From positions 24,647 to 88,646 of IMG/VR virus record IMGVR_UViG_3300018080_000014: a DNA stretch of 64,000 nucleotides; one strand, 5' to 3'. Positions within the stretch are counted from its first letter, which is position 1. Each line of letters starts with the position of its first letter. The position numbers and the translations under genes were made by a program. This DNA comes from a virus. Positions 13,741 through 64,000 of the stretch are shown one piece after another. The notes under the pieces were generated by a model. It ran no database searches, had not been told where the DNA came from, and saw only the letters and a program-made list of their open reading frames with translations.

Positions 13741-14871
13741 TTACGCCGTTTCTGGTACGGTTTTTCTAAGCACGACAAGGCTCGAAAAGTCTTCCACGCC
13801 CGGTGCGAACTTGAGTTCAAATCGCATCCTGTAGATGTGCGGCTCGTGAGCAAGATAGCTGTACGTGTACAGCCCATCACCATTGTGGAACTGGCACGTC
13901 TTGCTGGTAAACGTGAATCCAACACGTGGTGCCGTAAGGAACGCGAACTCGTGCCCACTTTCACGCATGAACCAATACTTGTTCCAGTTCGTCCAACTTG
14001 TTGCCGCTTGGTCACCAAGACCCGGCGATCCACGAGCACCAACGTTTGCAGCGTTTTCCTTGTACGTCTGGGAGCGCACGACGTTGACCTGCATGTTGTA
14101 GTTGCTTGCCAATCCACCAAAGAATGCCTGCAGTGTTCCACCAGAAACATCCCTGACGTACTTGATCCGTTCAAGGATCACGTCATGGTTCTTGAGGATC
14201 TTCGCAGTCTTCGTACCAATGAAAAGCTGGTTCAAATCCTCGTCGCCAAGCTGTTGCTGGTATTCCACGGCATTGTCCATGTCTTTGAATGGATCCGAGT
14301 TGGACATATCATCCCACGTCTTGCCCTGCATCCCTTTCAATGATTTGGAAAGGTCAAACGTGAGCAAGCGATCCGTGATCTGGTTGGAGAAATTCCTGAT
14401 AGCATGTAAATTACCATACAGGTAGTTCACCAGCTCCAGTTCAACACGCCGCTCGATGCCACGCACGCAGATTTGCGTGAGTTTCTGCATCTTCGCGGAT
14501 GTTCCGAAGTTCGCCTCTGGTGCAAATTCCTCGAGGAATTCCTCCGGTTCCATCGCGAAACCCATCTTGGTCAAGCGGGTTGCCCATTGCTCGGCATTCA
14601 TGCCGGTCGTGATGTATCGTGTCCTGCCATATGGGGAGTGCATCTCCGAGATCATCTGTGGATCCACGATAAGGGGCCACTCAAAATGACTGCCGCCATC
14701 TGGTCGTCCTTTCATCTTAGGCATGACTCGCCCGAGAACGGCCTCCCATTTGGAATCCCACATGCGCACCATGGGGATAAATGCCTTCTTGAGAAGGGAA
14801 ATGGGAATTAGGTTGGCATAAGCCATGTTAGGTAATCCCATACCACTTGGATCATTAAAGTCCCATGACAT
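13741..14871 (-). CDS. Major capsid protein (HK97 fold)
   Basis: 376 aa after protease/scaffold and decoration genes; spine-helix-like IERRVELELVN and A-domain-like WDD..SDPFKDM...TKTAKILKNH (phage_cap_E-like pattern). Confidence 0.8.
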   Translation of the reverse strand: MSWDFNDPSGMGLPNMAYANLIPISLLKKAFIPMVRMWDSKWEAVLGRVMPKMKGRPDGGSHFEWPLIVDPQMISEMHSPYGRTRYITTGMNAEQWATRLTKMGFAMEPEEFLEEFAPEANFGTSAKMQKLTQICVRGIERRVELELVNYLYGNLHAIRNFSNQITDRLLTFDLSKSLKGMQGKTWDDMSNSDPFKDMDNAVEYQQQLGDEDLNQLFIGTKTAKILKNHDVILERIKYVRDVSGGTLQAFFGGLASNYNMQVNVVRSQTYKENAANVGARGSPGLGDQAATSWTNWNKYWFMRESGHEFAFLTAPRVGFTFTSKTCQFHNGDGLYTYSYLAHEPHIYRMRFELKFAPGVEDFSSLVVLRKTVPETA

Positions 14872-16965: not shown

Positions 16966-17237
16966 TCACTGTCACCAAAATCAACAACATTGATACCTTT
17001 CACGTTTTTCACGTGCTCGTTTAAATCCGTACCACAATCGTGCATTTTTGGATTCCACTTGGTCGGATCCCACATTTCTGGCTTCTTCTCGCTTTCTTCA
17101 ACCTGCTTCTGGTAACACTTCTCGCATAGGCGCGTTTCTTCTTCCCAGTAGTATTCATCAACGCTATCCATGCCTGTTGGCTTCTTTGCCTCGAATTCCT
17201 CGTTGCACTTCTCGCATACCTTAATAACCTTGTTCAA
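16962..17237 (-). CDS. Small Zn-finger protein
   Basis: CEKC...CEKC; coupled to neighbours. Confidence 0.6.
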   Translation of the reverse strand: MNKVIKVCEKCNEEFEAKKPTGMDSVDEYYWEEETRLCEKCYQKQVEESEKKPEMWDPTKWNPKMHDCGTDLNEHVKNVKGINVVDFGDSE

Positions 17238-17607
17238 ACTGATCCTCCTCTATTGTTCCAATTGGTCTTTTTCGTGATTGGTTGGCGATGAGAAACTCGT
17301 GCGATTTTGAATCCTGATTATTTGGACATCCTTCTGTATCGCAGCCCATGACTATCGCATTATTGGATTCATCCACCACATCCATGGGTTTTCCACAGAA
17401 TCTACATGGAACGGGTATTGGAAACGATTTTTTCGTCACGCCAAACCTATGGTAATCTTCTCGCTTGTTGTGCGTTATTTCTCGCAATCCAGCATCTATG
17501 TGCCTGCCTATATTGTCAACTCCACGTGGCATCCATTGCTTCGGTTGATCATATGGAATGTCAATGTGGAATTTCCGTAGCTTGCTTTCAAGTTTCGATG
17601 TCATCAC
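17221..17607 (-). CDS. Zn-ribbon protein
   Basis: CRFC...CDTEGC. Confidence 0.6.
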   Translation of the reverse strand: MMTSKLESKLRKFHIDIPYDQPKQWMPRGVDNIGRHIDAGLREITHNKREDYHRFGVTKKSFPIPVPCRFCGKPMDVVDESNNAIVMGCDTEGCPNNQDSKSHEFLIANQSRKRPIGTIEEDQFEQGY

Positions 17608-18227: not shown

Positions 18228-19718
18228 TCATTCCGCCTTTGTACTTGCTCGTTCCTGTCCACCATTGATTCCGCCATTCATGCTCATCTTGGTGGAATTC
18301 ATTTCCTCGAATTTTGATTGGAGTTTCTTCGCGACTGCTGGATCCAGCTCATCCATCACTGATCCCCATATGCCTTGAAGGATCTGGCGTGGTTCGTTCC
18401 AATCCTCGTAGAACATCTTATCAGCAGCGATGCCGACCGCTTCCACGAGATCTTTCACCTTCTCGATTATTGTTGGTGGAAATCTTATGGAAAATTCACT
18501 TCTCCGTGGTGTCCTCCCGTTTCTTGGCAGGAGGATGTTACGGAAGAAGGGTTCAAGCCTGTTCTTGTACTTGCCGATGAGGCCCTGTATGTACCTGACT
18601 TGTTGCTGATCGAGCGATTTGGATGTTGCCAGTTCTGTACCAGATGTAGAACGAAGTCCCATGGAACCCATGAGACCAAGCATTATTTGTTCGTCATACA
18701 GGTGGATAGCATCTATAAATATCTGTGAACTCTTTGCCGTGCTCTTGGAGAGTATTTCCACCTTGTTGTAACCGGGAGTTGCCATGGCACCAAAGTTGCG
18801 CATGTTTATCAGGGATTCGAGCAGCATGTCACGTTCACGCTTGAACTCCTCGTCATCTTCTGGCATGTACGAGTTGGGGTCGCCCGTGTACCCGACCTTT
18901 ATTGGTGACCACTCGCGCTCCGCGAAATTTCTCATGTACCACCGCACCCACCGCTTGTCGGCCATGATGTCGAGCAATGCTGATACCGGGGGCCGCCGGA
19001 AGAACTCGAATTCCATCATGGTGTCAGGTTTATTTGGAACGACGATGTATTCCATCTGTGTCTCGCCAGCATATAGCTGGAGAACGCTGCTGTTGATGTC
19101 GGTGATTGATTTTATCATCGGAGCACGTGATTTCACCCAGTTAAAGAATCCAGATGACGTGTAAAACGTCTTGTTGAGCTTCCTTGCTGCTTGGACATAA
19201 CATTCATATCCAGCTACTGGATCCTTTACTTTTGCTACGGTAAGTGGATCCAATCTTGCTAAGTCGATGCCATACTCGTTATCATCGCTGTAGAGTATTC
19301 TCCATACGCTCTTGTTGTGTACATGGTTATCAACGAGGGTGTCAGATGCGAGATCGTATATGTCTTGGTTGCTCTCGTTTATGCGCTCGCACCACCCTTC
19401 CACGATTTCCTTGTCCTCGGGATTGTCGCTGTTCACCTTTATCCCGGTTGAAAATATCGTATATGCCAGTATATACGTCCACGATATTGCTATGGGTGAC
19501 CTCCAGAAGCAAATCTCCCTGTTCGTGGCGGTATCGGGTATATCATTAATGTACAGCTTGCGGAGCGTGTCGTTTATTGGTGACATCTTCAGTATTAAAT
19601 CCAAGTATGTCACCAAAGATGGCGCTCCTGCCAGTACTGTTGGTTTTCTGTATATCTTCGTGTTTAAGGAGAGACTCCTTCCAGGATTACTTCCACGCAT
19701 CACTATCATGTTGTTCAC
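18228..19718 (-). CDS. Portal protein
   Basis: 496 aa directly after TerL; RLDPLTV, GTELATSKS, FSIRFPP patterns. Confidence 0.75.
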   Translation of the reverse strand: MNNMIVMRGSNPGRSLSLNTKIYRKPTVLAGAPSLVTYLDLILKMSPINDTLRKLYINDIPDTATNREICFWRSPIAISWTYILAYTIFSTGIKVNSDNPEDKEIVEGWCERINESNQDIYDLASDTLVDNHVHNKSVWRILYSDDNEYGIDLARLDPLTVAKVKDPVAGYECYVQAARKLNKTFYTSSGFFNWVKSRAPMIKSITDINSSVLQLYAGETQMEYIVVPNKPDTMMEFEFFRRPPVSALLDIMADKRWVRWYMRNFAEREWSPIKVGYTGDPNSYMPEDDEEFKRERDMLLESLINMRNFGAMATPGYNKVEILSKSTAKSSQIFIDAIHLYDEQIMLGLMGSMGLRSTSGTELATSKSLDQQQVRYIQGLIGKYKNRLEPFFRNILLPRNGRTPRRSEFSIRFPPTIIEKVKDLVEAVGIAADKMFYEDWNEPRQILQGIWGSVMDELDPAVAKKLQSKFEEMNSTKMSMNGGINGGQERASTKAE

Positions 19719-21544
19719 GCAAGTCTTGTTGCCAGAGATACAAATGGCTTCTTTCTACACGCCCAGTACGCCAGCGCATGGGCGATTACCCTGTCATCGT
19801 GTGCCGATTGGGTCCCGTACTTTGGTTTCTTGCTTTCCGTTATGTCGTAACCGAACTTGAGCATTTCATCCCAAAAGTCCCTTACCTCTGGAAGATCATA
19901 CTGTGGTATGGCGATGTCGCCTCTTTTGGTATATCCTTCCACGAGATTGTCCACGAGATCAATCTTGGATTGCGTGTCGAAGATGAATCCCTTGTGTCTC
20001 TTCTTGGAATACAACCCGGTGCTCTTGTCCGGCTTGTTATCGAATATTTTCGTTCGCAGGCGCTCCCCGGGTGGCATCCTTACCTCGATCTCGTCTATCC
20101 TGCCGTTCGGTTTCGCTACCTGTATTACTATGCGACCAAGCCTTTTAAGTATTTGCAGATCATTCCACATATCATCCATGACAGGATCTCCTACTCCCGT
20201 GGCATCAGGGACAATCCATACTGGATTAAACAATGCGACTACTTGTAAAAACTTTGGTCGTATGTCAACGTAATCGAGATTGCTATATTGTCCACCAATG
20301 GTGAACATGTAATCCCACAACGCTTTTTCTTGTTTCCAGTCATAATGCATCACGTTAAGGGCGCTAGCATCATGCGTCTTGCCAAAATCCATGCCTATGA
20401 CGTAGTTCTTGATATTCTTTCTCGGGCTTGGCACGTTGTTGAGACCCATCATCACCGCGCGCTCCAGTAGTTCCATGCTGAACACGGCGGAACCTTCCTT
20501 GATGATTTCGCCAAGAATCTCCTGCCTTGCTTTTGGAGTATTGCCGGCAAGCCACAACTCGTACTCGATTTCTTCACGCGTCTTCCACGAGCAGGTCCAC
20601 GGATCGACTGGAACTACAGTGATAGCCCCGACACCATACATCCACCTGTTCCCGCCGCAGACGGGACAGTTTGGTAACTTCATTGGTAGAGCATGTGTGC
20701 CAAACTTGGTGATGAACTGGCGCATGAGTTGTGATTCCTGCTTGAATGTTGCTTGGCATACTTTGCCGTTCACGACGTTTGCGCATACTATCGGGCGAGT
20801 TTCCATGCCCATGGTATAGTGCCTGATGAATTCCCCACGATAACCAGCAGGGGTAGAAAGTAGAATCCAGCGTTTTCCGACACGCCTGAATGTTTTCAGC
20901 ACGACATCAGTCATGATCTCCTCATCTATCCACGCGGCTTCGTCCACCAGCCCGAGGTGCAGTGAACGGCCACGGACGCCTCTCGACGCAGGGTAAGCAG
21001 TGGCGGTGACCCGGCCGCCAGATTTTATTATTTTTGTAACATTGCTGGACTCTACCATGTAGCCAAATGGTGAGTTTTCGACAAAGATTTTTATCTTGTC
21101 CATTATTTCCTTGGCACCATCCTCGTTGATGGAGAACGTGCCAATGCGGTATCGCTTGTTCATGAAGATGAACGCGCATGCTGCTGCTATTGCCACGGCA
21201 GTGGTCTTGCCAAACTGGCGAGGCCATATCATCACGATCTCTTTCGGGCGGTCACCTTCTGGTATTACCCACGGGTACTGGTAAATATTGTACCCGAATT
21301 GTATGGAACGGATTGCCGCTTTCTGTGATTCTTCAAGGACGAGGGGCATGTCCTCGTCTTCCGGGTTTGGCAGCCAGTATTCTGCAAAAGATGCCCAGTC
21401 GAACAACGATTGTTGGAACTTTATGAATTCTGTTTCATCCTTTTCCGGGTCTATGCCCATCGTCTCGAATTGTTCCCATAAGAACTTGGTGTCACATCCA
21501 GATGATATGTCTCCTCCACCCATTCCAGCAGGCACTGCGCTCAT
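19715..21544 (-). CDS. terL: Terminase large subunit
   Basis: Walker A PRQFGKTT, Walker B VRGRSLHLGLVDEAA, motif III LSTP, nuclease GMDFG, DATGVG, HDDRVIA. Confidence 0.95.
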   Translation of the reverse strand: MSAVPAGMGGGDISSGCDTKFLWEQFETMGIDPEKDETEFIKFQQSLFDWASFAEYWLPNPEDEDMPLVLEESQKAAIRSIQFGYNIYQYPWVIPEGDRPKEIVMIWPRQFGKTTAVAIAAACAFIFMNKRYRIGTFSINEDGAKEIMDKIKIFVENSPFGYMVESSNVTKIIKSGGRVTATAYPASRGVRGRSLHLGLVDEAAWIDEEIMTDVVLKTFRRVGKRWILLSTPAGYRGEFIRHYTMGMETRPIVCANVVNGKVCQATFKQESQLMRQFITKFGTHALPMKLPNCPVCGGNRWMYGVGAITVVPVDPWTCSWKTREEIEYELWLAGNTPKARQEILGEIIKEGSAVFSMELLERAVMMGLNNVPSPRKNIKNYVIGMDFGKTHDASALNVMHYDWKQEKALWDYMFTIGGQYSNLDYVDIRPKFLQVVALFNPVWIVPDATGVGDPVMDDMWNDLQILKRLGRIVIQVAKPNGRIDEIEVRMPPGERLRTKIFDNKPDKSTGLYSKKRHKGFIFDTQSKIDLVDNLVEGYTKRGDIAIPQYDLPEVRDFWDEMLKFGYDITESKKPKYGTQSAHDDRVIAHALAYWACRKKPFVSLATRLA

Positions 21545-46459: not shown

Positions 46460-47569
46460 CTAGAAATCAAATGGATCCACCGACGTGCTACCGACTACAA
46501 CTTCCTTCTTCTTGGCAACTGGAGCAGGAGTAACTTTCTTTATCTCTTCCACGTCTTCTTTCTTGTGCTTACGCTGCGAGTTAAACAGCGCAGCTGGAAA
46601 TTTCAACGCGGATCTCCTGCCGGGAGAAGGTAGCGCGGCGAACATCGTCGCTAGAAATTGTTTATTAGTACGGTATACCCATCTATCTATCTTGGCAAGC
46701 TTTCGCAAGAAATCAGATAACTCTTCTGGTTTCCTGAAAAATCTTGCGCAATTGTAATCCAACCATGTGGTCACCCATGCGAGAGGATCTTTCGATTTCA
46801 TTATCCTCCCGAGCCTGCGTTTCACGTTCCTATCTCCGAAAACCGCACCAGCCACCCCTTCGGCGGTGATCTCGATCTCCTTCATGTACGTGCCGGAGTA
46901 CCCGTGTAGCAATCTCCTGATGACGACGCGGAAATCCTCGTCGTACAGCTTTGGAACTTCATGTACCCTGTCCGGGAATGATTGCTCCATGAATTGCCTG
47001 AAATCATCAATGCTTGGCGGGTACATCTTGATTATCTTCCCTTCCTTCTTGAGCATGGACATGATGGTTTTTGGTATCTTGCTAACGTTGTTGCAGGTCA
47101 TGATGATGGATACCTGCGATTCATCAAGGACTTTTTTAAAGTACACGTGGCTTCTCCAGTGAAAATTGTCCGCCTCATCAAAAAGAAATACCACGTCTGA
47201 TGGTGTCCTGTGGGCACCAAACAACGTATTGGCAAGTAACGTGCCAGTTCGCTTGTCGGAGAGATTTATCTTCCGCATTATTTTTCCAGCTTCTCTTATG
47301 GCAAACGTTGCCGATGCTGTCTTGCCAATACCCGGCTCGCCATGTAGAAGAACGTGCTTGTGTTGCTTTATTGCCAGTTGTATGGTATTTATCGTGTCAT
47401 CGTGACCAACCACGAACATGCCCGGTGGAAGGTCTTTGCCAGTATATCCCTTGTATAACTCGGCGGCTTCTGCCATGGTGACACCGACCATATGGCATAT
47501 TTCTTGCATGCTCCATCTGTTTTGGAGCACGTATTTCTTGATCGCCTTGGCCTTGTCCATAGAATTCAC
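46460..47569 (-). CDS. rfcL: Replication factor C large subunit
   Basis: GEPGIGKT, NLSDKRT, LFDEAD, IIMTCN, DFR; Lys-rich tail ending DPFDF. Confidence 0.8.
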   Translation of the reverse strand: MNSMDKAKAIKKYVLQNRWSMQEICHMVGVTMAEAAELYKGYTGKDLPPGMFVVGHDDTINTIQLAIKQHKHVLLHGEPGIGKTASATFAIREAGKIMRKINLSDKRTGTLLANTLFGAHRTPSDVVFLFDEADNFHWRSHVYFKKVLDESQVSIIMTCNNVSKIPKTIMSMLKKEGKIIKMYPPSIDDFRQFMEQSFPDRVHEVPKLYDEDFRVVIRRLLHGYSGTYMKEIEITAEGVAGAVFGDRNVKRRLGRIMKSKDPLAWVTTWLDYNCARFFRKPEELSDFLRKLAKIDRWVYRTNKQFLATMFAALPSPGRRSALKFPAALFNSQRKHKKEDVEEIKKVTPAPVAKKKEVVVGSTSVDPFDF

Positions 47570-52407: not shown

Positions 52408-52842
52408 GTGTACATGCGAACAATATGCCTATCAACATCGACAACGCTGGATCACGAGAAGATCCGGCCATTATACGAGAAAATCATTAGTGCCAATAGG
52501 AGGTGCGCGTTCTTCATTGACCGCACGAACCCCGTGCTCGAAGAAATGATAAAGAAATACAGGTGTCGCAAGATGCGGTTTCATCTCCAGCGAGCACTCA
52601 TGCGAGCTCGTGCAGCGTATGCTGATAGGGCAAAAAGAATCGTGGAGAAGGCCCAATCTTGTTATTGCGTGGTTGATAGCAAGGACAAGTATGCGGGACC
52701 AGTAGAAATAGCAGTGGAATTTATGGAAAGACATCCAGATCTCCACATAGAAATATATTTTGTTACTGGAGGAGAATGGAAACAGGTAACGATGCGAGAA
52801 GCGAGGAAAGGTACTCCATGGGATACGTTCCTATCCAAATAG
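52408..52842 (+). CDS. Possible SLOG/YspA-like Rossmannoid protein
   Basis: R...IVEKA..CYCVVDSK...GP pattern loosely matches the SLOG C-terminal motif. Confidence 0.35.
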   Translation: MYMRTICLSTSTTLDHEKIRPLYEKIISANRRCAFFIDRTNPVLEEMIKKYRCRKMRFHLQRALMRARAAYADRAKRIVEKAQSCYCVVDSKDKYAGPVEIAVEFMERHPDLHIEIYFVTGGEWKQVTMREARKGTPWDTFLSK

Positions 52843-55800
52843 AGAACGCCGATTACTCGGAAGAGATCGGCGAGGCAGTGCTACACATTACTGGATACGC
52901 CCGAGATGGGAGTAGGCACTATGTTGTCATACATGGAGAAGGCATCTATCCTTCTTTTGGTGTTCCATACGAGGAATTCTGGCTCATAAAGGATGACCCG
53001 AGGATAGTGGATTACTGGCGCGGACCTGATTCACCACTCGGTGAGCCCGTCATGGAAGTGAGGACGAAATTGCCAAGCGATATAGGAACGGGACAGGATG
53101 CGCTTCGCAATTACACGTCGCACTCGTACCAAGGGGACATCAAGTACTTCAAGAAATGCCTCACGCAGCTCGGGTTCTTTAACGGGTATTTCCAGTATGA
53201 TGATGCATACTTGGAGCATGATAAAATAGCATATCATCATCCCGCATTCAAGGTGCATGCGCATGTTCACACGGATCACGTCAAGCCATTACCAGATAGC
53301 GAGCGGTTCTTTGCCCAGAAAACAAAGGTGTACTGGGACACGGAATGGGACATGAGCGAGCTCAAGAACGAGTATGGTGAATTCAGGGGCTCGCAGCTGG
53401 ATAAAAACCATGATTGGAAACGTAGCAGGATGATAACCGTGGTATTTTATGAGTTTAAATACCAGAAATATGTCGCGTTTACATGGCATCCCCTGCTCAG
53501 GAAGGAAGTACACGACATGGAGGATTACATCAGCAGGATTGACGAGAAAATCCGCAACAAGATAAACATTCCTGAAAAATATACCAGTGAAGTAAACGGG
53601 TTCTTGGATGAAAGCACCATGTTCGATGCTATCATCGAGTACCTGCACGTGGTATCACCTGGATGCTTGCTTGGTTATAATTCGGCTGGTGGTATACATG
53701 GCAAGGGTGATGACAAGCACTGGATAAACGGGTTCGACATGCCGTATTTCTTTCTAAGGGCCGAGCATCTCAAGAAGCCAGTAAACAGGTTGAGCCCCAT
53801 GGGATCGGCGTACAAGCAATTCAGGAAAGGATGGGAGGAATTCTTCGTTAACATAAAGCTGGTGACGCAGTTCGATTTGTGGCATTCTGCCGAGTTTTTT
53901 GATATAACGTGGAAAGACTACTGGATAAAGAACAAGAAGCTTGACACGTTAATGTACAATTACTTGGGTATAGGGAAGGTAAAACATATAGGGCACGTAT
54001 GGGAACAGTGGCTGGAAGATCCATATCACGAGCGATATTATTGTACGGGTGATGTGGAGGGCACGTTCGCGCTGGATGTCATGTTTAACATGAGCGAGGA
54101 TGGATACAATAGGGCCATGATGTCTGGCACAGTGTGGGAAGATTACCAGTTCGCATCAAAGCTGCACGACCAAATCAACCTTCGCCTGTACAAGGACTTG
54201 TATTTCTTGGACACTAAGTGGCAAAAGGTAAGGGATATTGCCACGGGACACAAGATAAAAACGGAAGAACACGAGCATGGTATAAGGTGGAGACGTGACT
54301 GGATTACCAACCACATAGGAATAGAAGTGGAAAAGAAAGGTGGATACGTACCTGTACCAATCATAGGATTGCATGAAGGCGTCGTGGTGATAGACTTCAA
54401 CAAGTTCTATCCAAATTCCGCCATGGCTGCCAACTGTGGTCCAGAAACATTCGTTAACGTCAAGAAGCTCCGGTTCAAGAAGGCCGACACTGATATTTAT
54501 GGCGATGCAGAAGGTGTCAGGATACGCATTCCGAACATGGGAATAGAAGTGGTGGAACTTCGCCCCTTTCTCAGGCGGGAAATCGAGGATTGGGAGGAAG
54601 AAATGCGAAAGGCGCGTGCTGCCGTGGGGAATAACGTGTATGATCTCCACGAGTATTTCAAGAACGAGCTGATAGAATGGAAAGAAGTTGCGCATGATTG
54701 GAATGATTTGAACAGGACACCATCTGGATTCTTCTTGAAGACACCAACGGCAAAGAATACGATTGCTTTCGAGGAATTGCTGCGAAAGAGAAAGGAAATG
54801 CAGAAGCTTGCCAAGGATAGGCTTGCTGAGGTTGGTGATAAGAATGATTGGATGTACAAGGTATATGATTTACTCCAGTTTTCATTCAAGGGTCTAACCA
54901 ATGCGCGGTTTGGTATCACTGGAATGATGGCGGATAGGTTATACATGCTTCCAATATTTAATACGTTCACGCTTGTCGCACAAACACTTATCCGGGAATG
55001 CATACGATACATGGAAGAAGATCTTGAATATACCATTGTTGGTGGTGATACTGATAGTGTCTTTATCAAGCTCAAGAAGAAACTGGACCTGAAGCGTGAG
55101 GTTTTGGACAACGGGAGAGAAAGATGGTACTCCGTGGAAGCCGACACGTTGTGTAACATGCTAAACAAGCACGTGTGGGAGCATGCACAGCAGGAGTTCA
55201 ACTTCGACCGCAACACGTTCAACATGGACGTTGAAGATATTAGTGGATATTTTTATATCCATACTAAAAAGCACTACGTCAAGGCCGTGCTGGTTCGTGA
55301 AGGGGTGAAGTTCGATCACCCTGTTCTCATGTGGAAAGGATTGAAGCGTGTTAGCAGGTCAACATCACTCTGTACAGATGATATTCAAGATGCCTTGGGC
55401 GCAATAATCCTAAAGGGTGGCACGCTTGATGATGCCATACAATACATCATGAAGATACACGAGGAGTTCAATAACTACGAGCCAATGTACCTGTGCAAGG
55501 TATTGCCGTTGAAAAGACCACTTAGCAAGTACTCGAAAAACGGGGAAACGTGGAAAGCATACACGCTTGCTAACCAGTATTTCAATGCTGGATATGGCCT
55601 TGGAGCACGTGCGTTTATCGGCAGGCTTAAATATTGCCCGCCCAAGATAAAAGGGAGAAAAGTCAATCCTCAGCTTGGAGATGTCATAGCATTCGATGAG
55701 AGGATGTTGCCTGAAATAAAGGAAGCTGGATTGGTATTTGATTACGATGAATTGGAAGACAAGGCTGCTGCGGCAGCTGCGAATGAGTTACTCGCAAGAT

Positions 55801-55862
55801 TTGATACGTCATATTGGGATGTGCTGGAAGATGTCAGGACATACGACCCTTGGGAATTCTAA
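52776..55862 (+). CDS. polB: Family B DNA polymerase with 3'-5' exonuclease
   Basis: WDTE, GYN...FDMPY, YCTGDV; DFNKFYP, KGLTNARFG, GDTDS, KKHY. Confidence 0.95.
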   Translation: METGNDARSEERYSMGYVPIQIENADYSEEIGEAVLHITGYARDGSRHYVVIHGEGIYPSFGVPYEEFWLIKDDPRIVDYWRGPDSPLGEPVMEVRTKLPSDIGTGQDALRNYTSHSYQGDIKYFKKCLTQLGFFNGYFQYDDAYLEHDKIAYHHPAFKVHAHVHTDHVKPLPDSERFFAQKTKVYWDTEWDMSELKNEYGEFRGSQLDKNHDWKRSRMITVVFYEFKYQKYVAFTWHPLLRKEVHDMEDYISRIDEKIRNKINIPEKYTSEVNGFLDESTMFDAIIEYLHVVSPGCLLGYNSAGGIHGKGDDKHWINGFDMPYFFLRAEHLKKPVNRLSPMGSAYKQFRKGWEEFFVNIKLVTQFDLWHSAEFFDITWKDYWIKNKKLDTLMYNYLGIGKVKHIGHVWEQWLEDPYHERYYCTGDVEGTFALDVMFNMSEDGYNRAMMSGTVWEDYQFASKLHDQINLRLYKDLYFLDTKWQKVRDIATGHKIKTEEHEHGIRWRRDWITNHIGIEVEKKGGYVPVPIIGLHEGVVVIDFNKFYPNSAMAANCGPETFVNVKKLRFKKADTDIYGDAEGVRIRIPNMGIEVVELRPFLRREIEDWEEEMRKARAAVGNNVYDLHEYFKNELIEWKEVAHDWNDLNRTPSGFFLKTPTAKNTIAFEELLRKRKEMQKLAKDRLAEVGDKNDWMYKVYDLLQFSFKGLTNARFGITGMMADRLYMLPIFNTFTLVAQTLIRECIRYMEEDLEYTIVGGDTDSVFIKLKKKLDLKREVLDNGRERWYSVEADTLCNMLNKHVWEHAQQEFNFDRNTFNMDVEDISGYFYIHTKKHYVKAVLVREGVKFDHPVLMWKGLKRVSRSTSLCTDDIQDALGAIILKGGTLDDAIQYIMKIHEEFNNYEPMYLCKVLPLKRPLSKYSKNGETWKAYTLANQYFNAGYGLGARAFIGRLKYCPPKIKGRKVNPQLGDVIAFDERMLPEIKEAGLVFDYDELEDKAAAAAANELLARFDTSYWDVLEDVRTYDPWEF

Positions 55863-55865
55863 GAG

Positions 55866-56468
55866 GTGTACAAAATGCTACAAATGGAAGAACCTGATCC
55901 GGGAAGAATAACCGCGTTCGTGAGTGGTAGTTGGAAGGACAAGGACTTGGTATCAGAAGTCATCCAGTACCTGTGGGATAGAGGCATACATATAACACAT
56001 GACTGGACGAATGACAGGGACATGCTGTGGAGCAATATACAGGTAAGAGAAGCGATAAAGAAGGCAAAATATTTTGTACTCGTCAACGGGCCAGATCCAA
56101 CGCAAGGAAAGGCATGGGAGTGCGGCCTTGCTGATGCGTGGGAAATTCCAATCATCGTGCTCGGTGAGCCAATAACCAACAGCTTCTATTACAGGCCTGT
56201 AATACACGAGAAAATAGATAAGAATACGGATATTGGTGCAGTTGCCGCGGATTGCATCATAGCAGTCGATATGTTTATTTCCCTTAGTGGAATGAACCCC
56301 GGCGAGGCGCTTGAGTATGAATTGGTAAAGAAAGACCCGTACACGTGGAATCTGAAGCGCATGGAACGTGCAGTTGCTAACATGACAAAGGCAATGCTCA
56401 CGATAAATCCAGAAGGTGGGTTGCTCGGTGATCCAGACGGGTTCAAGGACAAAAAGTCCCCTACCTAA
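55866..56468 (+). CDS. Nucleoside 2-deoxyribosyltransferase-like protein
   Basis: FVSG.W, HDW, GKAWECGLA...IPIIVLG. Confidence 0.7.
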   Translation: MYKMLQMEEPDPGRITAFVSGSWKDKDLVSEVIQYLWDRGIHITHDWTNDRDMLWSNIQVREAIKKAKYFVLVNGPDPTQGKAWECGLADAWEIPIIVLGEPITNSFYYRPVIHEKIDKNTDIGAVAADCIIAVDMFISLSGMNPGEALEYELVKKDPYTWNLKRMERAVANMTKAMLTINPEGGLLGDPDGFKDKKSPT

Positions 56469-56527
56469 CTTCGCCGCTACCGGGTGTAATTGAACGATAA
56501 AATGCAGTTTTACGAGATGGGGACACG

Positions 56528-56869
56528 ATGCCACGAGACAAACAAGCAGGAAAAAAATACCTCCAAGACGACTCGACAAAAAAGCTCGGTTCGGTAGATA
56601 ATGTCGAACCACCTCCATGTATACCAGACTTAGCAGGAGTGCCCACTATAGATTGGAGAATATATGTGGATTGTCGAATAAGCAGGTTCGAGTCTGCCAT
56701 AGAATCAATAGCCACACTCTTGGGCAAAAATGCGCACAAGAAAGTAGCAGCAGTGGAAAGGTTGAAAGGAGAATGGCAAAGGGTCCAAGGAGAATACCAA
56801 GATCAAAAACGATACACGGCATTTGGAATGAAAGCGCTGAAATTGCTGGAGGTGCTATGGGATGATTAG
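56528..56869 (+). CDS. Hypothetical protein
   Basis: 113 aa, coupled to the next gene. Confidence 0.55.
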   Translation: MPRDKQAGKKYLQDDSTKKLGSVDNVEPPPCIPDLAGVPTIDWRIYVDCRISRFESAIESIATLLGKNAHKKVAAVERLKGEWQRVQGEYQDQKRYTAFGMKALKLLEVLWDD

Positions 56870-57551
56870 ATGCAGGTTTTGCGACAGGATAATGCGCAGC
56901 GTTTACGAGGACACCGATTCAATCTTGGCAATATGCGATACGCCGGGTTGTCAGAACAATCCAAGAACCAATTACAACAAGCAAGAGGAAGATAAAGGAT
57001 TCGTCAGGCTAACTGACCTGTACCCGCAAGGTCCAGAGGTTTCCCGTGATATTGGTGACAACGTGTTCTTGCTACGATTTTGCGACAGGATAATGCACAT
57101 GGGATTCGCAATGGAACCACAACACTGGGAAGATGCGCATGCACCAATTCTTCCCACATCTCGTGCCATGGAGGAGGCAACGAGAGCAATAGAAAGACGC
57201 ATCGAGGCAGATACCATCAATTGTATTGCTGGAGAGCGGTTCATCGATCCGCCTACCTGTGAACAATGTGATCCCGAGGTAGTGGAGGATGCGCATGATG
57301 ATCTTGTAGACGCACTCGAACATGCGCTGGTGACACCTAGGCAGGAAGAAATGCGTGAACGGGAAACAGAATCACGCAGGTTGCAACCAATGCACTTTTT
57401 CTCATGGAGCCTGTCGGCGCCAGCCATCCGCATGCACAATGGATCGAGGATTTGTATCATGGATTCGCAATACGATCCAAGTCCAGTACGTGGACACAGT
57501 GCAAGGGTTATCATGGATGATGAAGACGAGGAGGATGACGATGACGGGTGA
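56862..57551 (+). CDS. Mosaic protein: Zn ribbon + MCP-like segment + terminase-like motifs
   Basis: Segments align by eye with ORF 17221-17607, MCP ~99-153, and TerL nuclease and Walker B motifs. Confidence 0.7.
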   Translation: MIRCRFCDRIMRSVYEDTDSILAICDTPGCQNNPRTNYNKQEEDKGFVRLTDLYPQGPEVSRDIGDNVFLLRFCDRIMHMGFAMEPQHWEDAHAPILPTSRAMEEATRAIERRIEADTINCIAGERFIDPPTCEQCDPEVVEDAHDDLVDALEHALVTPRQEEMRERETESRRLQPMHFFSWSLSAPAIRMHNGSRICIMDSQYDPSPVRGHSARVIMDDEDEEDDDDG

Positions 57552-57804
57552 CGTGATACGCCTGATAGACCTGTACCCGGAGCTTGGTGATCTCCATGCA
57601 CACGATGACGAGATTATATGCTTCGTTTTCAATGGCAGGACCAAAAGGTTATCATTGGGTAATATCAGGATCTCGCTGTGGATTGGTAACGCCATGTGCC
57701 CTGTACACCACGTGACGTTCGATGACAGGAGGCAGCGTGGCGTGCTAGCGGTGAACGAGACGGAATATGGTCATAGAGGATGTGGATTCGTTGATCAATT
57801 ATAG
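57541..57804 (+). CDS. Hypothetical protein
   Basis: GGAGG SD; VIRLIDLYPE resembles FVRLTDLYPQ in the upstream gene. Confidence 0.5.
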   Translation: MTGDVIRLIDLYPELGDLHAHDDEIICFVFNGRTKRLSLGNIRISLWIGNAMCPVHHVTFDDRRQRGVLAVNETEYGHRGCGFVDQL

Positions 57805-58459
57805 CAGGAATAGCGGAAGGACAACCGCGGCGATGAACGATGCCATAGAAGTGGCAAACACTGGCACGAGGATACGATTCGTATGTTCCAGTACGAAGCA
57901 ATGCAGCTATGCGAGGAGCATGTTAAAACAGGCCGGTAGTGATCCGTTCTTGTCACCATGTGATCGTCCAGAATTTATAGAAATAATCACCGCTAACCAG
58001 CTTGACTATGAATGTAACGTATCTATCCGCCAAGGAATACGAACCATCCTCGATCACCACGTGTGGGAACTGATGGAAGATGGCAAGTTTAGATACCTGC
58101 ACGAGGAAATCATGAAGCATGGAGATTTTTTCGAGTTATTGCTACATCCCGTCGGGTCGCCATACGAGAACGATGCCGATCCAACCATGTGCAGGATGAC
58201 CGACGTGTACAAGGAAGAATGGGAAAAGGAAATAGAGAACGAGATAAGCGAGCTGCGAGTAGAGGATGGTCAGGAAGACATAATAGATGCGATCTCTGAC
58301 AAGTTTGGCATAGAAATATCCATGAACGATACAAACAAATCCGTTTTATCAAAAATGACACGAGTAATGGCATCAACAATGGAAAATTTGGAAATGGCAA
58401 TGAGAGAAATATTTAGAATGGAAAAGCGCATACACGAGTTGGAAAACGATGATAGTTGA
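57767..58459 (+). CDS. Degenerate terminase-ATPase-like domain plus coiled coil
   Basis: SRNSGRTTAA (Walker A with K to R), IRFVCSSTKQ, TILDH. Confidence 0.55.
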   Translation: MVIEDVDSLINYSRNSGRTTAAMNDAIEVANTGTRIRFVCSSTKQCSYARSMLKQAGSDPFLSPCDRPEFIEIITANQLDYECNVSIRQGIRTILDHHVWELMEDGKFRYLHEEIMKHGDFFELLLHPVGSPYENDADPTMCRMTDVYKEEWEKEIENEISELRVEDGQEDIIDAISDKFGIEISMNDTNKSVLSKMTRVMASTMENLEMAMREIFRMEKRIHELENDDS

Positions 58460-58715
58460 AATATTCAACTGGATAGCCTGCGTGATGGCAGTACTTGGTT
58501 CACTCACGCTGGCATGCAAGGCTGATAACATGCGAGGATGGATCATATATACAATAGCAGCAGTGGCAGGAATCATTTATTTTTCCATGACTGGAAACTG
58601 GCCACAGCTTGGAGTCTGGTGCATGTTCCTGTTCAACGACATCCTTGCCATGAGAAGGAAACTGCGAACAAGTAAAGATGATGACGCGCCACGAGTGATG
58701 TGGAAAAAATATTGA
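58449..58715 (+). CDS. Small 3-TM membrane protein (PnuC/SemiSWEET-like size)
   Basis: WIA...AVLG..L......GW pattern; three hydrophobic helices. Confidence 0.5.
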   Translation: MIVEIFNWIACVMAVLGSLTLACKADNMRGWIIYTIAAVAGIIYFSMTGNWPQLGVWCMFLFNDILAMRRKLRTSKDDDAPRVMWKKY

Positions 58716-59092
58716 ATGATATACAAAAGGATCTTGAAGATGCGTTCAAGAACATCAAGAATTTCGGTGATCTTGCCCCTTCAAATATATGGATGACCAA
58801 GAAAACGGCAACAATGATAAAGGAACACCGTGTACCTCCACACGTACCACGCATGGTGGATCATTACACGAGGCCTAGATTCATGCCGCGATGGAAGTGG
58901 TACTTCCTGAGATGGTTCGATGATTTCAAGCAAGAACTTGCCACGATGAAATGGAGACAAGGAGGCAAACCAAACCACGGCATTCTGTACATGCCCGGAT
59001 TCTTCATAAACAGCACGGTGGCGAGACTGCTGGAAACAGCATGCGAGCCCATGTACCACGGCCCGGGTGAAAGGAAGGGTAATGAAAAATGA
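58700..59092 (+). CDS. Protein with N-terminal MCP A-domain-like fragment
   Basis: DIQKDLEDA...FGD...KKTATMIKEHRV vs MCP DPFKDMDNA...LGD...TKTAKILKNHDV. Confidence 0.6.
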   Translation: MEKILNDIQKDLEDAFKNIKNFGDLAPSNIWMTKKTATMIKEHRVPPHVPRMVDHYTRPRFMPRWKWYFLRWFDDFKQELATMKWRQGGKPNHGILYMPGFFINSTVARLLETACEPMYHGPGERKGNEK

Positions 59093-59322
59093 TCAAGGAT
59101 AAATCCACGCACGAGCTGCTATACATTTTATCACAGAAGGGACATTGCTGGTACAACGAGACGAAATGCTACAGGATATTCAACGAGCTGGTAGATAGGA
59201 TTGATGATGATGAAAGAAGAAACCTGTCCGTGGCATTATCACACATGTACTCATGCGGGGAAGGACCAATGGAACTGATAGACATATGCAAGGAATTGAT
59301 GGAGAAGTACAAGGATGATTAG
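59089..59322 (+). CDS. Small helical hypothetical protein
   Basis: Coupled on both sides. Confidence 0.55.
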   Translation: MIKDKSTHELLYILSQKGHCWYNETKCYRIFNELVDRIDDDERRNLSVALSHMYSCGEGPMELIDICKELMEKYKDD

Positions 59323-60190
59323 AAGCCCGATAAAATGGTTTGGTGGAAAGAGCTGGCTGGTGGAGAAAATCATCAGCTACATACCACGAGAATGTGACGT
59401 GGTAATAGAAGCATTTGGTGGAGGAGCATGGCTGACGCTCAATCTTCCTCTTGGGCGGTTCAAGGTAATCATATGCAACGACATCAACGACCTGCTCATA
59501 AATTTCTGGATGGTCCTAAAGAATTCACACGCGGAACTGAAGGATGCTGCCATGCATGTACCAGATAGTGAGGTGGTATATGGGCATTTCGAGGACGTGA
59601 TAAACCATGGTGTACCGTACTTGGAAAAACTGGAAGATCCCGTGGAGATGGCACTGGCATTCTTTTACTTGAATACGCACAGTTATTCTGGCATACACAC
59701 GGGATTCCACGGGTTGAACTTTTCCACGCCTACGCAAAACCAACGAGCATACTTGTCAAAAATAGACCTATTCGAGGATATATGGTCCAGAATAAAATAC
59801 GTTACATTTAAAAACACTGACGTTATAGACCTGTTGAAGTCTGCTGATCGTGATAATGTTTTCATTTACTTGGACCCGCCATACTTCCAAGGTGGTGAAG
59901 TCTATGAATCCATCCATGGTGGCAAGCCGTGGGGCGAGGAAGATTTTTTCCGCCTGAGGGAAAGATTGTGGGAAATGGAGCATGCAAAAATACTCGTGTC
60001 CATCGATCAAGGAGAGTATTTCAAGAAGGAAGGGTGGCACATGGAGGAGATAGAGAAGACGAAAAAGCTGCGAGCAGAAGCAAAGATTGGAAGAGAAACG
60101 TTGGTGATGAATTACGAGCCTATTGGAATGGTTGAAAATGGAGAAAAAACACAGGCAGGAAGCACGGCAGCAGACCCGTGGTACTTCTAA
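59315..60190 (+). CDS. Dam-like (D12 class) N6-adenine DNA methyltransferase
   Basis: SPIKWFGGK, EAFGGG, NDIN..LINFW, YLDPPY; ends DPWYF. Confidence 0.9.
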   Translation: MIRSPIKWFGGKSWLVEKIISYIPRECDVVIEAFGGGAWLTLNLPLGRFKVIICNDINDLLINFWMVLKNSHAELKDAAMHVPDSEVVYGHFEDVINHGVPYLEKLEDPVEMALAFFYLNTHSYSGIHTGFHGLNFSTPTQNQRAYLSKIDLFEDIWSRIKYVTFKNTDVIDLLKSADRDNVFIYLDPPYFQGGEVYESIHGGKPWGEEDFFRLRERLWEMEHAKILVSIDQGEYFKKEGWHMEEIEKTKKLRAEAKIGRETLVMNYEPIGMVENGEKTQAGSTAADPWYF

Positions 60191-60464
60191 GAATTTGGTA
60201 CATGAGATAGACGAGGCAATAGACGAGTTCCGCGAGCAGCATTTCAGGCAACCGGAATTCCTGCTCTTGAATTACCGCACGGCATTTGTTGTCAAGAAGG
60301 AGATTGGCGAAAGGATGAAATACATCGTTGATGCCCGTAACAACCTTATTGGATCCACGTACAGGGGATTGGAGGTTTTTGAATGTGGAATGGACATACC
60401 GTTTATAGTTATTGGTGGTAATATTACAAAGTTACTGAGATATGCAAGAAGGGAATACATATGA
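60138..60464 (+). CDS. Stand-alone HK97 A-domain-like small protein
   Basis: EIDEAI...PEFLLLNYRTA...ERMKYIVD...YRGLEV vs MCP DMDNAV...QLFIGTKTA...ERIKYVRD. Confidence 0.55.
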   Translation: MEKKHRQEARQQTRGTSKNLVHEIDEAIDEFREQHFRQPEFLLLNYRTAFVVKKEIGERMKYIVDARNNLIGSTYRGLEVFECGMDIPFIVIGGNITKLLRYARREYI

Positions 60465-61741
60465 CAATACTACATGGCGACTGCTTCCAGTTGGTGAAAT
60501 CCGTACCCCATGAAACGTTCCACGCTATCGTCACGGACCCACCATACGGGATTGAATGGCTGAATAACGATTGGGATAAGCCAGACAAACTGTGGGATAA
60601 GCGGCAGACAGACTACCCTTCAGCACGCGGTACAGATGGTAAAGCCAACCTTAACGAATACGAAGCTGGAGAGAAGTTCTATTTTTGGTTTTCCCCTATT
60701 GCACGAGAAATGCAGCGGACACTAAAAACGGGAGGTAGTTGCTTTGTATTTTCATCCACGAGAACACTGCACCATCCGATGCGATGCTTGGAAGAGGCAG
60801 GATTTTTGATAAAGGATGTCCTGATGTGGAATTACCATACTGGATTTCCCAAGGCAATAAGTGTCCCCTTTCTTGTTGACAAGCGTGCGGGAATTGTTAG
60901 CACGAGTGACCCGAATGGACACACGGCTGTTTCCCAAGCGGCACAGGAACATGAAGGATGGGTGGTAGGTCGTGCCAAGCCAGCATGGGAACCAATTATA
61001 TGGGCGACAAAGCCATGTGATACAGCCATAGACTGCATGCTTGAAGACGGTATAGGTGGTATAAATGTTGGAGAAACGAGAATACCGGTGAACCCGGAGA
61101 TCGATGACATGAAACGCACGGTGATCCGCCAGCCACGCCATCCTGATAACGTGCTTAATTTCGATGACGCCGGTATCGGTGACAAGAAGGAGATGTTCAC
61201 CGGTGTCAGGGAGGAAGGTAGATTCCCGGCAAACGTGGTAGTGGTAAATGGTGAGATATTGGGAAAGCCGAAATTTAATATAATGTATGGCATACGGAAA
61301 GATGACCAAGTAATAGATATACCTAAACCGGACAGGAGCGAAAGGGACATGGGATTGGAAAACTGCTCCCACAACCCCATCTCGGGCGACGTGTGGGACA
61401 AGAAACTTGTATGCGCATCATGTGGAAAGAGTGTCAGGAAGCCGAAGACGACATGCGGATGTGGCAATCCTGTACTACAGTGGAAAAAATCGAAAAGAAA
61501 GGTGGTAAGGAATACCCATCCAACCGTGAAACCAATCGCGCTGTTCGAGCATCTTGTACGTCTCGTGACGAGAAGGGGGCAAGTTGTTGCCGATTTCTTT
61601 GAAGGATCTGGAACGTGTGCGATAGCATGCAAGAAAACTGGACGCGAGCACTGGGGAGCGGAACAGGATGAGGAGTACTACAACTTGGCCACGTCACGCG
61701 TGGCAAACCTATTCAATACATATGACCCGTGGGATTTTTGA
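60461..61741 (+). CDS. Beta-class amino-DNA methyltransferase with Zn-ribbon insert
   Basis: GDC, VTDPPY, GFPK, KPAWEPI, GRFPAN, HPTVKP, DFFEGSGT; ends DPWDF. Confidence 0.9.
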   Translation: MTILHGDCFQLVKSVPHETFHAIVTDPPYGIEWLNNDWDKPDKLWDKRQTDYPSARGTDGKANLNEYEAGEKFYFWFSPIAREMQRTLKTGGSCFVFSSTRTLHHPMRCLEEAGFLIKDVLMWNYHTGFPKAISVPFLVDKRAGIVSTSDPNGHTAVSQAAQEHEGWVVGRAKPAWEPIIWATKPCDTAIDCMLEDGIGGINVGETRIPVNPEIDDMKRTVIRQPRHPDNVLNFDDAGIGDKKEMFTGVREEGRFPANVVVVNGEILGKPKFNIMYGIRKDDQVIDIPKPDRSERDMGLENCSHNPISGDVWDKKLVCASCGKSVRKPKTTCGCGNPVLQWKKSKRKVVRNTHPTVKPIALFEHLVRLVTRRGQVVADFFEGSGTCAIACKKTGREHWGAEQDEEYYNLATSRVANLFNTYDPWDF

Positions 61742-62025
61742 TGACGAGGCACAGCAGGCAGAGAAACATGAAAATAGTAACCACGTATCTGGGCAAGCAG
61801 CATGTTAGAATGCTGGAATTGCTCGTGGAAGAAGGATATTACCTTAATAACAGCGATGCCATAAGGGCGGCGATAGATCTCCTGATAGACGTGAGACTTG
61901 GAACGTCCGAAAAACTGGCAGAAATTGAAAGCAAGATGAAAGATCTTGGCAAAATGAGCTACGATGAAAGACGTGCCAAGAGGCGTGGAGAAGTGTACGA
62001 CAAGGATGGGATGGTGATAACGTGA
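61741..62025 (+). CDS. Ribbon-helix-helix (CopG/Arc) regulator
   Basis: KIVTTYL...L..LVEEGYY.N.SDAIRAAI. Confidence 0.8.
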   Translation: MTRHSRQRNMKIVTTYLGKQHVRMLELLVEEGYYLNNSDAIRAAIDLLIDVRLGTSEKLAEIESKMKDLGKMSYDERRAKRRGEVYDKDGMVIT

Positions 62026-62738
62026 GAATATCAAAAGTCAGCAACCAAGGCATGGCAGAGTTCGATGATGGCATATCAGCGATAGTATTCTTCTGCGGAT
62101 GCGATCTCGATTGCCCGTTCTGCCATAACGACAAGCTGATAAAGCTGGAAGATTGCCCGAAAAATGATTACGAGGCATGGGAAGCGGCGGAACTCATAAA
62201 GCTTGACATGGTGGATTGGGTATCGCTCACCGGTGGAGAGGTGCTTGTACAATCAGATTTTGGAACCGTGCGAAACATGATCGAGTACGTGAAAAGCAAA
62301 GGCAAGAAAGTAAACATAGATACCAACGGATTCATACGCAACGGATCGCCAAAGTGGAAGAATCTAAAGTCTATTGCTGGCATGCTTGACTGCATAAGCG
62401 TGGATATAAAGATGCAGAAAGTACAAACGAACACGTACCTGAACATGCATACATGGCTTGATGGCTTGCGTGTTCGAGATAAAACAAGATTTCGCATGGT
62501 AGTGCTGGAAGAAGTATCGGATGTATATTTCGCGAATCATACCATGAAGTTTTTCAAGTATAATGGTATAAAACGAATTGAACTGCTTCCAAATTCCATG
62601 CTCGGGAGAGGTGTGCAATTTTCGCGAACATCGAAAGAATTACTTGGACAGATTGCCACGTTTTATTCCGACAATGGAATTTCTACAGGACCAACGGAAA
62701 GCTTAAATACGAGTAATCATACAGGAGCTCGAGGCTAA
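62022..62738 (+). CDS. Radical SAM protein, glycyl-radical activase (NrdG/PflA)-like
   Basis: GCDLDCPFCHN, LTGGE, IDTNG, SVDIK. Confidence 0.8.
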   Translation: MRISKVSNQGMAEFDDGISAIVFFCGCDLDCPFCHNDKLIKLEDCPKNDYEAWEAAELIKLDMVDWVSLTGGEVLVQSDFGTVRNMIEYVKSKGKKVNIDTNGFIRNGSPKWKNLKSIAGMLDCISVDIKMQKVQTNTYLNMHTWLDGLRVRDKTRFRMVVLEEVSDVYFANHTMKFFKYNGIKRIELLPNSMLGRGVQFSRTSKELLGQIATFYSDNGISTGPTESLNTSNHTGARG

Positions 62739-64000
62739 TGATTATTGACGAATTTGAATCCAAGGGATATTCCATCAAGCTGGTAGATGACTACGATATA
62801 AGGGTGGTAAATCCATTTGGCAAGAAAATAAAGAATCCTCCATCACACGCTAGAAAGCATCCAAAGTGGCAAGAATTCAAGGACTTGCGAAAGATACATC
62901 GCAGGGAAGTTGCTGGGATAAAGCACGAATTCCTGAGATCCATGATGATGCGCAAGGAGGTTGACACGTACATTACCACGTCGAGAAAAAGCACGGTGAC
63001 GAATATAACAATGGCTGATTTGTATTCTGTCGTGGAAAACATGTACGTCGAGGCTCGTGTTAGAGCACATGATCCGGTAATACAAAAGGAGCCATTTGAT
63101 GAAACATGGAGAGGATTCGTGACTGGATACAACGACACGAACCTGCTCGTTGACGGAAAGATGGCGAGATTGATACGCATGCTGCATCCATCCGAGATAG
63201 ACGACTTGTGGGAAGTGCAGAAGCAGGCAATCATCGAGCTGCGAGACACGCATATCATGCAGCTTTTCAGGCCAACATTCGAGCCCGAGATAGACGAGGA
63301 ATACTATGTCATGCGGTTCTTGGAAATACCGATCAAGGCGAACCAGGCATATAAGGTGATAGACACGTATGATTGGAAAGTTCCACGATTACAAAACATG
63401 CCAGAAGAAGGAACTGTTGCCAAGTATTTCACTTCCAAGGATAACAAGTACATGGTACGGTGGCAATACTCCTTGGACTACCCGAGAGGGAAAAGTGAGT
63501 GGGAATCTGGCACGATGGAATTCTTCTTGTGCCATGATGGAATTGCACCACAACCATGCAGGGTGGTTGATGTTGATCCCGTGGTGTTTTCCGAGGCCGT
63601 GTGGGAGATACAGAAGATCATAGACACGTGCCGGGTCGATGACGAGGTATCCAAGACTACCATGACGTACAGGCAAAACATTGCCAAGATTTACATGGAT
63701 GCGTTGCACATAACCAATTGTGAAATAGTTGGTAGCGTCATAAAGGTGTATGGTGATTGGGGGATATATGGAATATCACTCAAGGATGGTAGATCCATGT
63801 GGTGGAGTAACAAGAGATATATCTGCATACAACCACTTACCGGGCACGAGCGTCCAAAATATGGCGCGTATCTTGTTGGTGATGGTGTTTTGGATGATCC
63901 AACATTAGCGTTGGCCATAGCAAAGATGCGTGATTTATCGGATGACACGCACCCAATAGATGAAGTTGAAGGTAGACAAATAAGACCAGAAAATCCCAAC
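62738..64000 (+). CDS. Partial CDS to window edge, DUF4132-like
   Basis: ATG at 62738 after promoter CCAACGGAAAGCTTAAATA; GKKIKNPP...K..FKDL...M and IRMLHPSE..W patterns. Confidence 0.45.
   Translation, partial: MIIDEFESKGYSIKLVDDYDIRVVNPFGKKIKNPPSHARKHPKWQEFKDLRKIHRREVAGIKHEFLRSMMMRKEVDTYITTSRKSTVTNITMADLYSVVENMYVEARVRAHDPVIQKEPFDETWRGFVTGYNDTNLLVDGKMARLIRMLHPSEIDDLWEVQKQAIIELRDTHIMQLFRPTFEPEIDEEYYVMRFLEIPIKANQAYKVIDTYDWKVPRLQNMPEEGTVAKYFTSKDNKYMVRWQYSLDYPRGKSEWESGTMEFFLCHDGIAPQPCRVVDVDPVVFSEAVWEIQKIIDTCRVDDEVSKTTMTYRQNIAKIYMDALHITNCEIVGSVIKVYGDWGIYGISLKDGRSMWWSNKRYICIQPLTGHERPKYGAYLVGDGVLDDPTLALAIAKMRDLSDDTHPIDEVEGRQIRPENPN

Follow-up and report, generated by a model that had tools for sequence, protein, structure and literature searches.

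Capsid-like segments in a replication operon

The window analysed here is a stretch of 64,000 nucleotides (nt), covering bases 24647-88646 of a virus record (IMGVR_UViG_3300018080_000014) that is 88,646 bases long and carries direct terminal repeats. The virus is tailed and its host probably archaeal, the latter because one homolog of its major capsid protein (MCP) carries the name of a Thermoplasmata metagenome-assembled genome (MAG) and because a relative encodes a ThiS/SAMP2-like protein. Its virion module lies on the minus strand and its replication operon on the plus strand (Table 1). Small open reading frames (ORFs) are packed tightly in this operon, with overlapping stops and starts, between the gene for a family-B DNA polymerase (PolB) and the second of two DNA methyltransferase genes. 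Three of them, ORFs A, C and D, hold segments resembling the MCP. A sequence-only reading of this DNA had taken four ORFs of the block, A to D, for an array of capsid and terminase fragments within the replication operon and far from the virion module, possibly serving as decoys for immune sensors. The location was described correctly, the block lying between PolB and the two methyltransferases, and so was the lack of any complete structural protein: the similarity of ORFs A, C and D to a complete HK97-type MCP is confined to its residues 95-153 or about 190-256. The claim of shared segments survives in part, as it holds strongly for A, probably for C, and mainly at the level of fold for D, while ORF B and all terminase resemblances drop out.

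Nine ORFs were compared with the MCP, the large terminase (TerL) and the portal in 27 Smith-Waterman comparisons with 200 shuffles each, key pairs being repeated with 5000. Only ORF A (z 11.4, score reached by 0/200 shuffles), ORF C (z 4.4, 0/200) and ORF D (z 4.2, 1/200) rose above the shuffles, in every case against the MCP; among 5000 shuffles, 0, 7 and 22, respectively, reached the MCP score. The similarity to the MCP family is significant for A and marginal for C and D. When a hidden Markov model (HMM) of the MCP was run over the 1641 six-frame ORFs of the genome, the top three non-self matches were A (12.0 bits), C (11.5 bits) and D (6.5 bits), followed by one at 3.5 bits; all three lay in the coding frame and within 3.6 kb of each other. 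It is mainly because of this clustering that we accept ORF C as probable and ORF D as possible on sequence alone. The MCP family comprises 15 homologs at 56-84% identity. Across 16 MCP homologs, A, C and D were placed on the same MCP segments throughout, with E ≤ 0.01 for 16/16, 11/16 and 6/16, respectively, and some distant homologs matched C and D better than did the virus's own MCP, to which the pieces are only 30-37% identical.

The similarity is clearest in ORF A, whose residues 72-124 (57075-57233) align with MCP 95-153 at 22/59 identical positions (37%, BLASTP E 7e-9). Its Smith-Waterman score of 88 stands against a shuffle mean of 31 and was reached by 0/200 and 0/5000 shuffles, hhalign against a 16-sequence MCP alignment gave 90% (E 1.6e-6), and the pair was the best in an all-vs-all comparison of 93 window ORFs. 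The second-best pair joined residues 2-33 of ORF A (56865-56960) to the Zn-ribbon of the head-module ORF 17221-17607 (15/32 identical, E 1e-7); the ribbon also resembles the ortholog of that ORF in G001. As other early ORFs carry this ribbon type too, we treat it as a promiscuous module. ORF A would accordingly read as a chimera of a Zn-ribbon, a roughly 55-residue copy of the predicted MCP spine-helix segment, with deletions of 2 and 4 residues, and an acidic tail. A Shine-Dalgarno-like GGAGGTG stands 7 nt upstream of its start. A complex prediction that paired the MCP alignment with residues 60-170 of ORF A scored 0.00, which is not evidence either way.

An AlphaFold2 (AF2) model of the MCP, usable for secondary structure only (predicted local distance difference test, pLDDT, 39), shows a 25-residue helix at 126-150, predicted to be the spine helix and covered by the ORF A segment, and a helix-strand-helix at 194-240. 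MCP 180-242 aligns with residues 145-207 of 3bjq, a lambda-E-type capsid structure. Residues 6-45 of ORF C fall on MCP 192-231, at the start of the axial (A) domain (BLASTP: C 10-45 on MCP 196-231; hhalign against the MCP alignment 51%, E 1.5e-4), and its remainder is unrelated to the MCP; ORF C would thus retain only the first 40 or so A-domain residues. ORF D aligns with MCP about 190-256 (BLASTP: D 47-83 on MCP 216-254). Compared directly, ORFs C and D show no relation. A search of all six frames of the whole genome turned up no copy of the MCP N-arm, E-loop, complete P-domain or C-terminal third. ORFs A, C and D share with their own MCP family (phrog_1005/phrog_29; lambda-E-like, 3bjq) two conserved segments, and differ from it in being fragments in a non-structural setting, with A and C fused to unrelated sequence.

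ORF B, in contrast to these three, scored at shuffle level: its MCP, TerL and portal scores were reached by 155/200, 30/200 and 40/200 shuffles, and its TerL score by 76/500. Searches of Pfam and PHROGs gave only sub-threshold matches, and we rejected it as a virion-protein fragment. Its Atlas neighbours, weakly P-loop/RecA-like (template modelling score, TM, 0.38-0.50; model pLDDT 0.58), offer a lead only. Resemblance to terminase or portal was at chance level for every ORF of the block. The TerL score of ORF A was reached by 96/200 and 255/500 shuffles, and that of its best TerL match, a short AHDD-type motif, by 135/500. The shuffle-controlled alignments proposed as a check on the sequence-only reading thus came out in favour of A and marginally of C and D against the MCP, and against B and all TerL pairs. 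Like ORF B, the other small ORFs of the block appear to be unrelated to virion proteins.

Table 1. Features of the window that bear on the block (positions are those of the window; aa, amino acids)
Feature	Position	Strand	Remarks
Major capsid protein (MCP)	13741-14871	-	phrog_1005 (E 2.8e-9) and phrog_29 matches; HK97-type; reference for the fragments
Head-module protein, 128 aa	17221-17607	-	Zn-ribbon at residues 66-97, matching the ORF A N-terminus
Portal	18228-19718	-	Virion module
Large terminase (TerL)	19715-21544	-	phrog_2 (E 2.6e-30) and Terminase_6N
PolB, family B	52776-55862	+	PF00136
200-aa ORF directly after PolB	55866-56468		Matches below threshold to TIR_2 (E 3.5e-4) and to nucleoside 2-deoxyribosyltransferase
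ORF A, 229 aa	56862-57551	+	Zn-ribbon, MCP-like segment, acidic tail
ORF A2, small	57541-57804	+	Frame other than that of ORF A; GAGGAGG motif upstream; no capsid similarity
ORF B, 230 aa	57767-58459	+	No capsid, terminase or portal similarity
88-aa ORF	58449-58715	+	Weak, sub-threshold transporter-family matches; no capsid similarity
ORF C, 130 aa	58700-59092	+	Residues 6-45 (58715-58834) resemble MCP 192-231
ORF E, 77 aa	59089-59322	+	No similarity found
D12-class N6-adenine DNA methyltransferase (Dam)	59315-60190	+	Overlaps the start of ORF D
ORF D, 108 aa	60138-60464	+	HK97 A-domain-like; its stop overlaps the N4/N6 methyltransferase start
N4/N6 DNA methyltransferase	60461-61741	+	PF01555

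ORF D and HK97 A-domains

ORF D is connected to capsid proteins chiefly by its predicted fold. Its AF2 model was built with its one homolog and is of low confidence (pLDDT 57). Structure prediction followed by Foldseek, a check proposed with the sequence-only reading, gave a divided answer: the listing consisted almost wholly of HK97-fold proteins, and nothing in it reached E ≤ 0.001. A second structure search, not using Foldseek, covered 48,161 Protein Data Bank (PDB) chains, of which 2pk8 was the best match (Z 6.7, root-mean-square deviation 3.5 Å, 80/94 residues). Going by their titles, the 13 chains at Z ≥ 5 all belong to HK97-fold capsids or encapsulins, as do 47 of the best 50 rows, which matched over A-domains (e.g. 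HK97 gp5 249-334); the other three are two tRNA-synthetase domains and HypA. The structural register, compared via 3bjq, is roughly that of the sequence alignment. ORF D may therefore be a free-standing copy of the MCP A-domain.

In the HK97 fold, the A-domain and the spine-helix region make contacts within and between capsomers. Fragments holding these regions might dock on the MCP or its partners and act as assembly modulators or dominant-negative proteins, delaying the virus's own heads or poisoning the capsids of co-infecting relatives. Interference by full-length MCP homologs is known, and one of them, Ccm of SaPIbov5 (7rwz_B), is among the structural neighbours of ORF D. Fragments that poison assembly would, however, strike the virus's own MCP too, and ORFs A and C are not conserved; we consider such a role improbable.

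The nearest structural match leads elsewhere, to a group of cellular proteins. According to the parts of PMC8346489 and PMC11664910 available to us, Family-4 encapsulins are cellular, mostly archaeal proteins of about 100 residues that consist of the A-domain only and are encoded downstream of an enzyme, and 2pk8 is PF0899 of Pyrococcus furiosus (DUF1884/PF08967), the one solved Family-4 protein and a dimer in the crystal. Among the pieces described here, ORF D alone has this size and fold, as judged from its low-confidence model: it is about 100 residues long, appears to be an A-domain by itself, and finds in 2pk8 its best structural match. It also resembles Family 4, so far as those sources describe it, in its probably archaeal setting and, in this virus though not in L007, in lying directly downstream of an enzyme gene (dam) in an operon. 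Differences are that ORF D is viral rather than cellular, that it has no PF08967 sequence match, and that it keeps a weak similarity to the MCP of its own virus; furthermore, neighbours of the D family are DNA methyltransferases and radical-SAM genes, whereas those named for Family 4 in the same parts of the literature are GAPDH, DeoC, hydrogenase and OsmC. By analogy, ORF D would most likely act as these encapsulins do, as a small, self-associating protein that docks on a partner, candidates for which are an enzyme encoded nearby or a usual contact partner of the MCP A-domain.

The one homolog of ORF D (30% identical) lies at 17238-17474 of L007, a distant relative with a PolB at 41% identity. 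Directly upstream is a gene for a 211-residue protein without family match, and downstream is a radical-SAM gene, a neighbour conserved on that side of D-family genes. The surrounding block also encodes Dam and, at L007 14841-15903 between Dam and the D homolog, a ThiS/SAMP2-like small modifier and ThyX; a gene of SAMP type is in keeping with an archaeal host. A further candidate homolog, L006:13768-14265, was rejected (hhalign 0.4%).

Predicted viral structures in BFVD provide additional neighbours. Of the best 50 rows for the ORF D model, 31 are uncharacterised or unnamed viral proteins of 70-128 residues, and 11 of the 19 larger ones are named capsid proteins. The best neighbour has E 3.8e-3 and TM 0.71; E-values run from there to about 1, and TM by target up to 0.75. 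Small phage proteins among these neighbours include A0A068EMQ5 of Bacillus phage CP-51 (82 residues) and proteins from two haloarchaeal tailed viruses, Haloferax tailed virus 1 and Halogranum tailed virus 1. They are 8-19% identical to ORF D, and the models are predictions on both sides. Such predicted neighbours suggest that free-standing A-domain-like proteins may form a widespread class among tailed viruses that has gone unstudied.

Age, relatives and gene turnover

In the three aligned segments, third codon positions are identical to those of the MCP gene at frequencies of 0.26, 0.15 and 0.30, vs 0.39-0.68 for positions 1 and 2. Third positions are thus as alike as random, which rules out recent DNA copying from the resident MCP gene. 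Either long retention of the pieces at protein level or their capture from a distant, unsampled MCP would account for this; among 1.84 billion representatives there is no closer donor. Codon usage in each plus-strand ORF of the block favours the in-frame model of the genome by 0.13-0.25 per codon, as in known genes; antisense ORFs show no such fit.

Relatives share the gene order PolB, Dam, radical SAM, with a PolB-Dam gap of 0.6-1.6 kb vs 3.45 kb here. By tblastn, ORFs A, B and C have no counterpart in these relatives; of the four, ORF D alone has a homolog there, in L007. Searches of viral contigs with ORF A, the MCP, PolB and the ORF D alignment yielded nothing close; those with the MCP and PolB alignments recovered only a 70,984-base relative and one remote PolB. 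A phage collection gave no match to the virus, and a search of genome contigs gave no relatives. A family of about 200 residues that relatives keep upstream of PolB (L019:10916-11527 and five others) contains a 16-residue stretch resembling MCP 233-248; as a family derived from the MCP it was rejected (hhalign 5.6%).

Repeats point to local recombination, both within ORF A and between it and ORF A2. Two in-frame direct repeats of 22 nt in ORF A (56877-56898 and 57078-57099; 21/22 identical, 201 nt apart) bracket the Zn-ribbon unit, and the second begins exactly where the MCP-like segment begins, for which reason the pair is likely to be a recombination scar. ORFs A2 and A have in common a 20-nt stretch with 16/20 identical positions. 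Given these repeats, the short PolB-Dam gaps of relatives and the absence from them of A, B and C, we regard the block as a site of gene turnover. ORFs A and C may be lineage-specific products of local recombination that created new ORFs.

A 33-nt direct repeat (73% identical) at 56841-56873 and 59294-59326 takes in the beginnings of both ORF A and Dam, 2453 nt apart, and encloses exactly those ORFs that are missing from relatives; it may mark an insertion, or be due to chance.

Possible roles and operon setting

Our preferred interpretation, held tentatively and rated a little short of an even chance, is that the three small genes are old pieces of the capsid family, exapted as soluble binding modules in a variable accessory block. 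The stretch would be the variable accessory part of a replication and DNA-modification operon, and the A, C and D proteins, presumably no longer building shells, would be made with the replication genes and act as soluble protein-binding modules.

Several observations weigh against this interpretation. By sequence, ORFs C and D are marginal (7/5000 and 22/5000 shuffles), and singly neither passes correction for about 92 proteins (p about 0.001-0.004). The hhalign value of ORF D against the MCP was 34% and fell to 21% once its homolog was added. The model from which its fold is judged is of low confidence, and the Z of 6.7 lies in what the tool calls the middling range. Neither ORF D nor its L007 homolog matches PF08967 (DUF1884) at E ≤ 10, and the arrangement with an enzyme directly upstream, Dam in this virus, is not kept in L007. 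ORF A is an ORFan, with no homolog among 5.8 billion or 1.84 billion proteins; this leaves selection on it unproven and would allow for a recent capture of its MCP piece from a distant virus not yet sampled.

Some of these points would equally suit an account in which the block holds leftovers: ORF A alone would be capsid-derived, as a recombination relic without any role connected to capsids, and the similarities of C and D would be due to chance or to a generic alpha/beta fold. The p-values of C and D, set against the number of proteins tested, favour this account, as do their hhalign values (51% for C, 21-34% for D), the low pLDDT of the Atlas model of ORF A (0.39) together with its ORFan status, and the repeats as marks of recombination. 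Nevertheless, ranking in the top three of an unbiased genome scan and clustering in 3.6 kb are improbable by chance, the fold search with ORF D yields almost only HK97 A-domains, a distant relative has kept a homolog of ORF D, and the codon-biased frames stay open despite saturated third positions. We consider the account rather unlikely.

The sequence-only reading had favoured immune decoys, that is, capsid-derived proteins made before the late genes that occupy capsid sensors without activating them. Consistent with this, the pieces retain the most highly conserved regions of the MCP, in which residues 176-245 hold both the PHROG and the 3bjq signal, and the genes sit with replication genes at least 36 kb from the head module. 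In the portion of PMC13728456 available to us, capsid-sensing systems are described as recognising fold and not sequence. The abstract of PMC10973363 offers the sole functional precedent we found: DSAD1 of SPbeta-like phages blocks DSR2 by mimicking the tail tube protein and occupying its sensor pocket. The analogy would lie in virion-protein mimicry; there, however, a tail tube is mimicked and not a capsid. The low identity to the virus's own MCP (for C and D no higher than that to distant MCPs) argues against decoys, as does the loss of ORF B and of all TerL fragments from the proposed array. A tuned self-mimic is also hard to reconcile with an ORF A that has no detectable homolog and an ORF D that has a non-immune cellular analogue in the Family-4 A-domain encapsulins. 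Neither a capsid-derived decoy nor a viral free-standing HK97 A-domain was described in the literature searched, so far as its text was accessible, and the former was likewise absent from the accessible part of PMC13728456. On balance we hold the decoy account to be quite improbable.

So far as the available sources go, the A-domain-only HK97 proteins described to date are cellular ones for which a viral origin is presumed. The present virus carries an A-domain-like protein with weak similarity to its own MCP, placed among DNA-modification enzymes and accompanied in the same block by two pieces that appear capsid-derived, which would provide a concrete viral context for how A-domain truncations arise. 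The set is small and clonable (108-229 residues) and lends itself to asking whether capsid-fold fragments bind enzymes, capsid proteins or capsid-sensing immune proteins. A bolder proposal, which we hold to be quite improbable, is that free-standing capsid-fold pieces produced along with replication proteins form a recurrent, so far unrecognised non-structural class, whose soluble members stand in for unassembled capsid protein and thereby blunt capsid-sensing immunity or sabotage the heads of rivals; such a class could be the viral source of cellular A-domain encapsulins.

The remainder of the operon yielded some minor observations. It further encodes a ribbon-helix-helix (RHH) protein and, beyond the methylases at 62022-64000, a radical-SAM/4Fe-4S protein and then a DUF4132/DUF7737 protein. 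The ORF directly after PolB has a homolog in the 71-kb relative. One contig of 7240 bases (L012) matches PolB on both strands in mirrored fashion (1565-3628 and 5676-3613) and looks like a fold-back assembly artefact. PolB (55845-55862), Dam (60173-60190) and the N4/N6 methylase (61724-61741) all end in a C-terminal DPWxF, and an AAA+ (RFC-like) protein ends in DPFDF (46460-46477, minus strand); these tails look like a common C-terminal docking peptide.

Contigs from other runs cover the block only as short pieces, without differing letters, and all nine differing letters that were seen lie within PolB. Over 52700-64000, the longest contig pieces of four other public runs (X2-X5), from sediment and seawater metagenomes, match the window without differing letters, and the same virus genotype seems to recur across samples.

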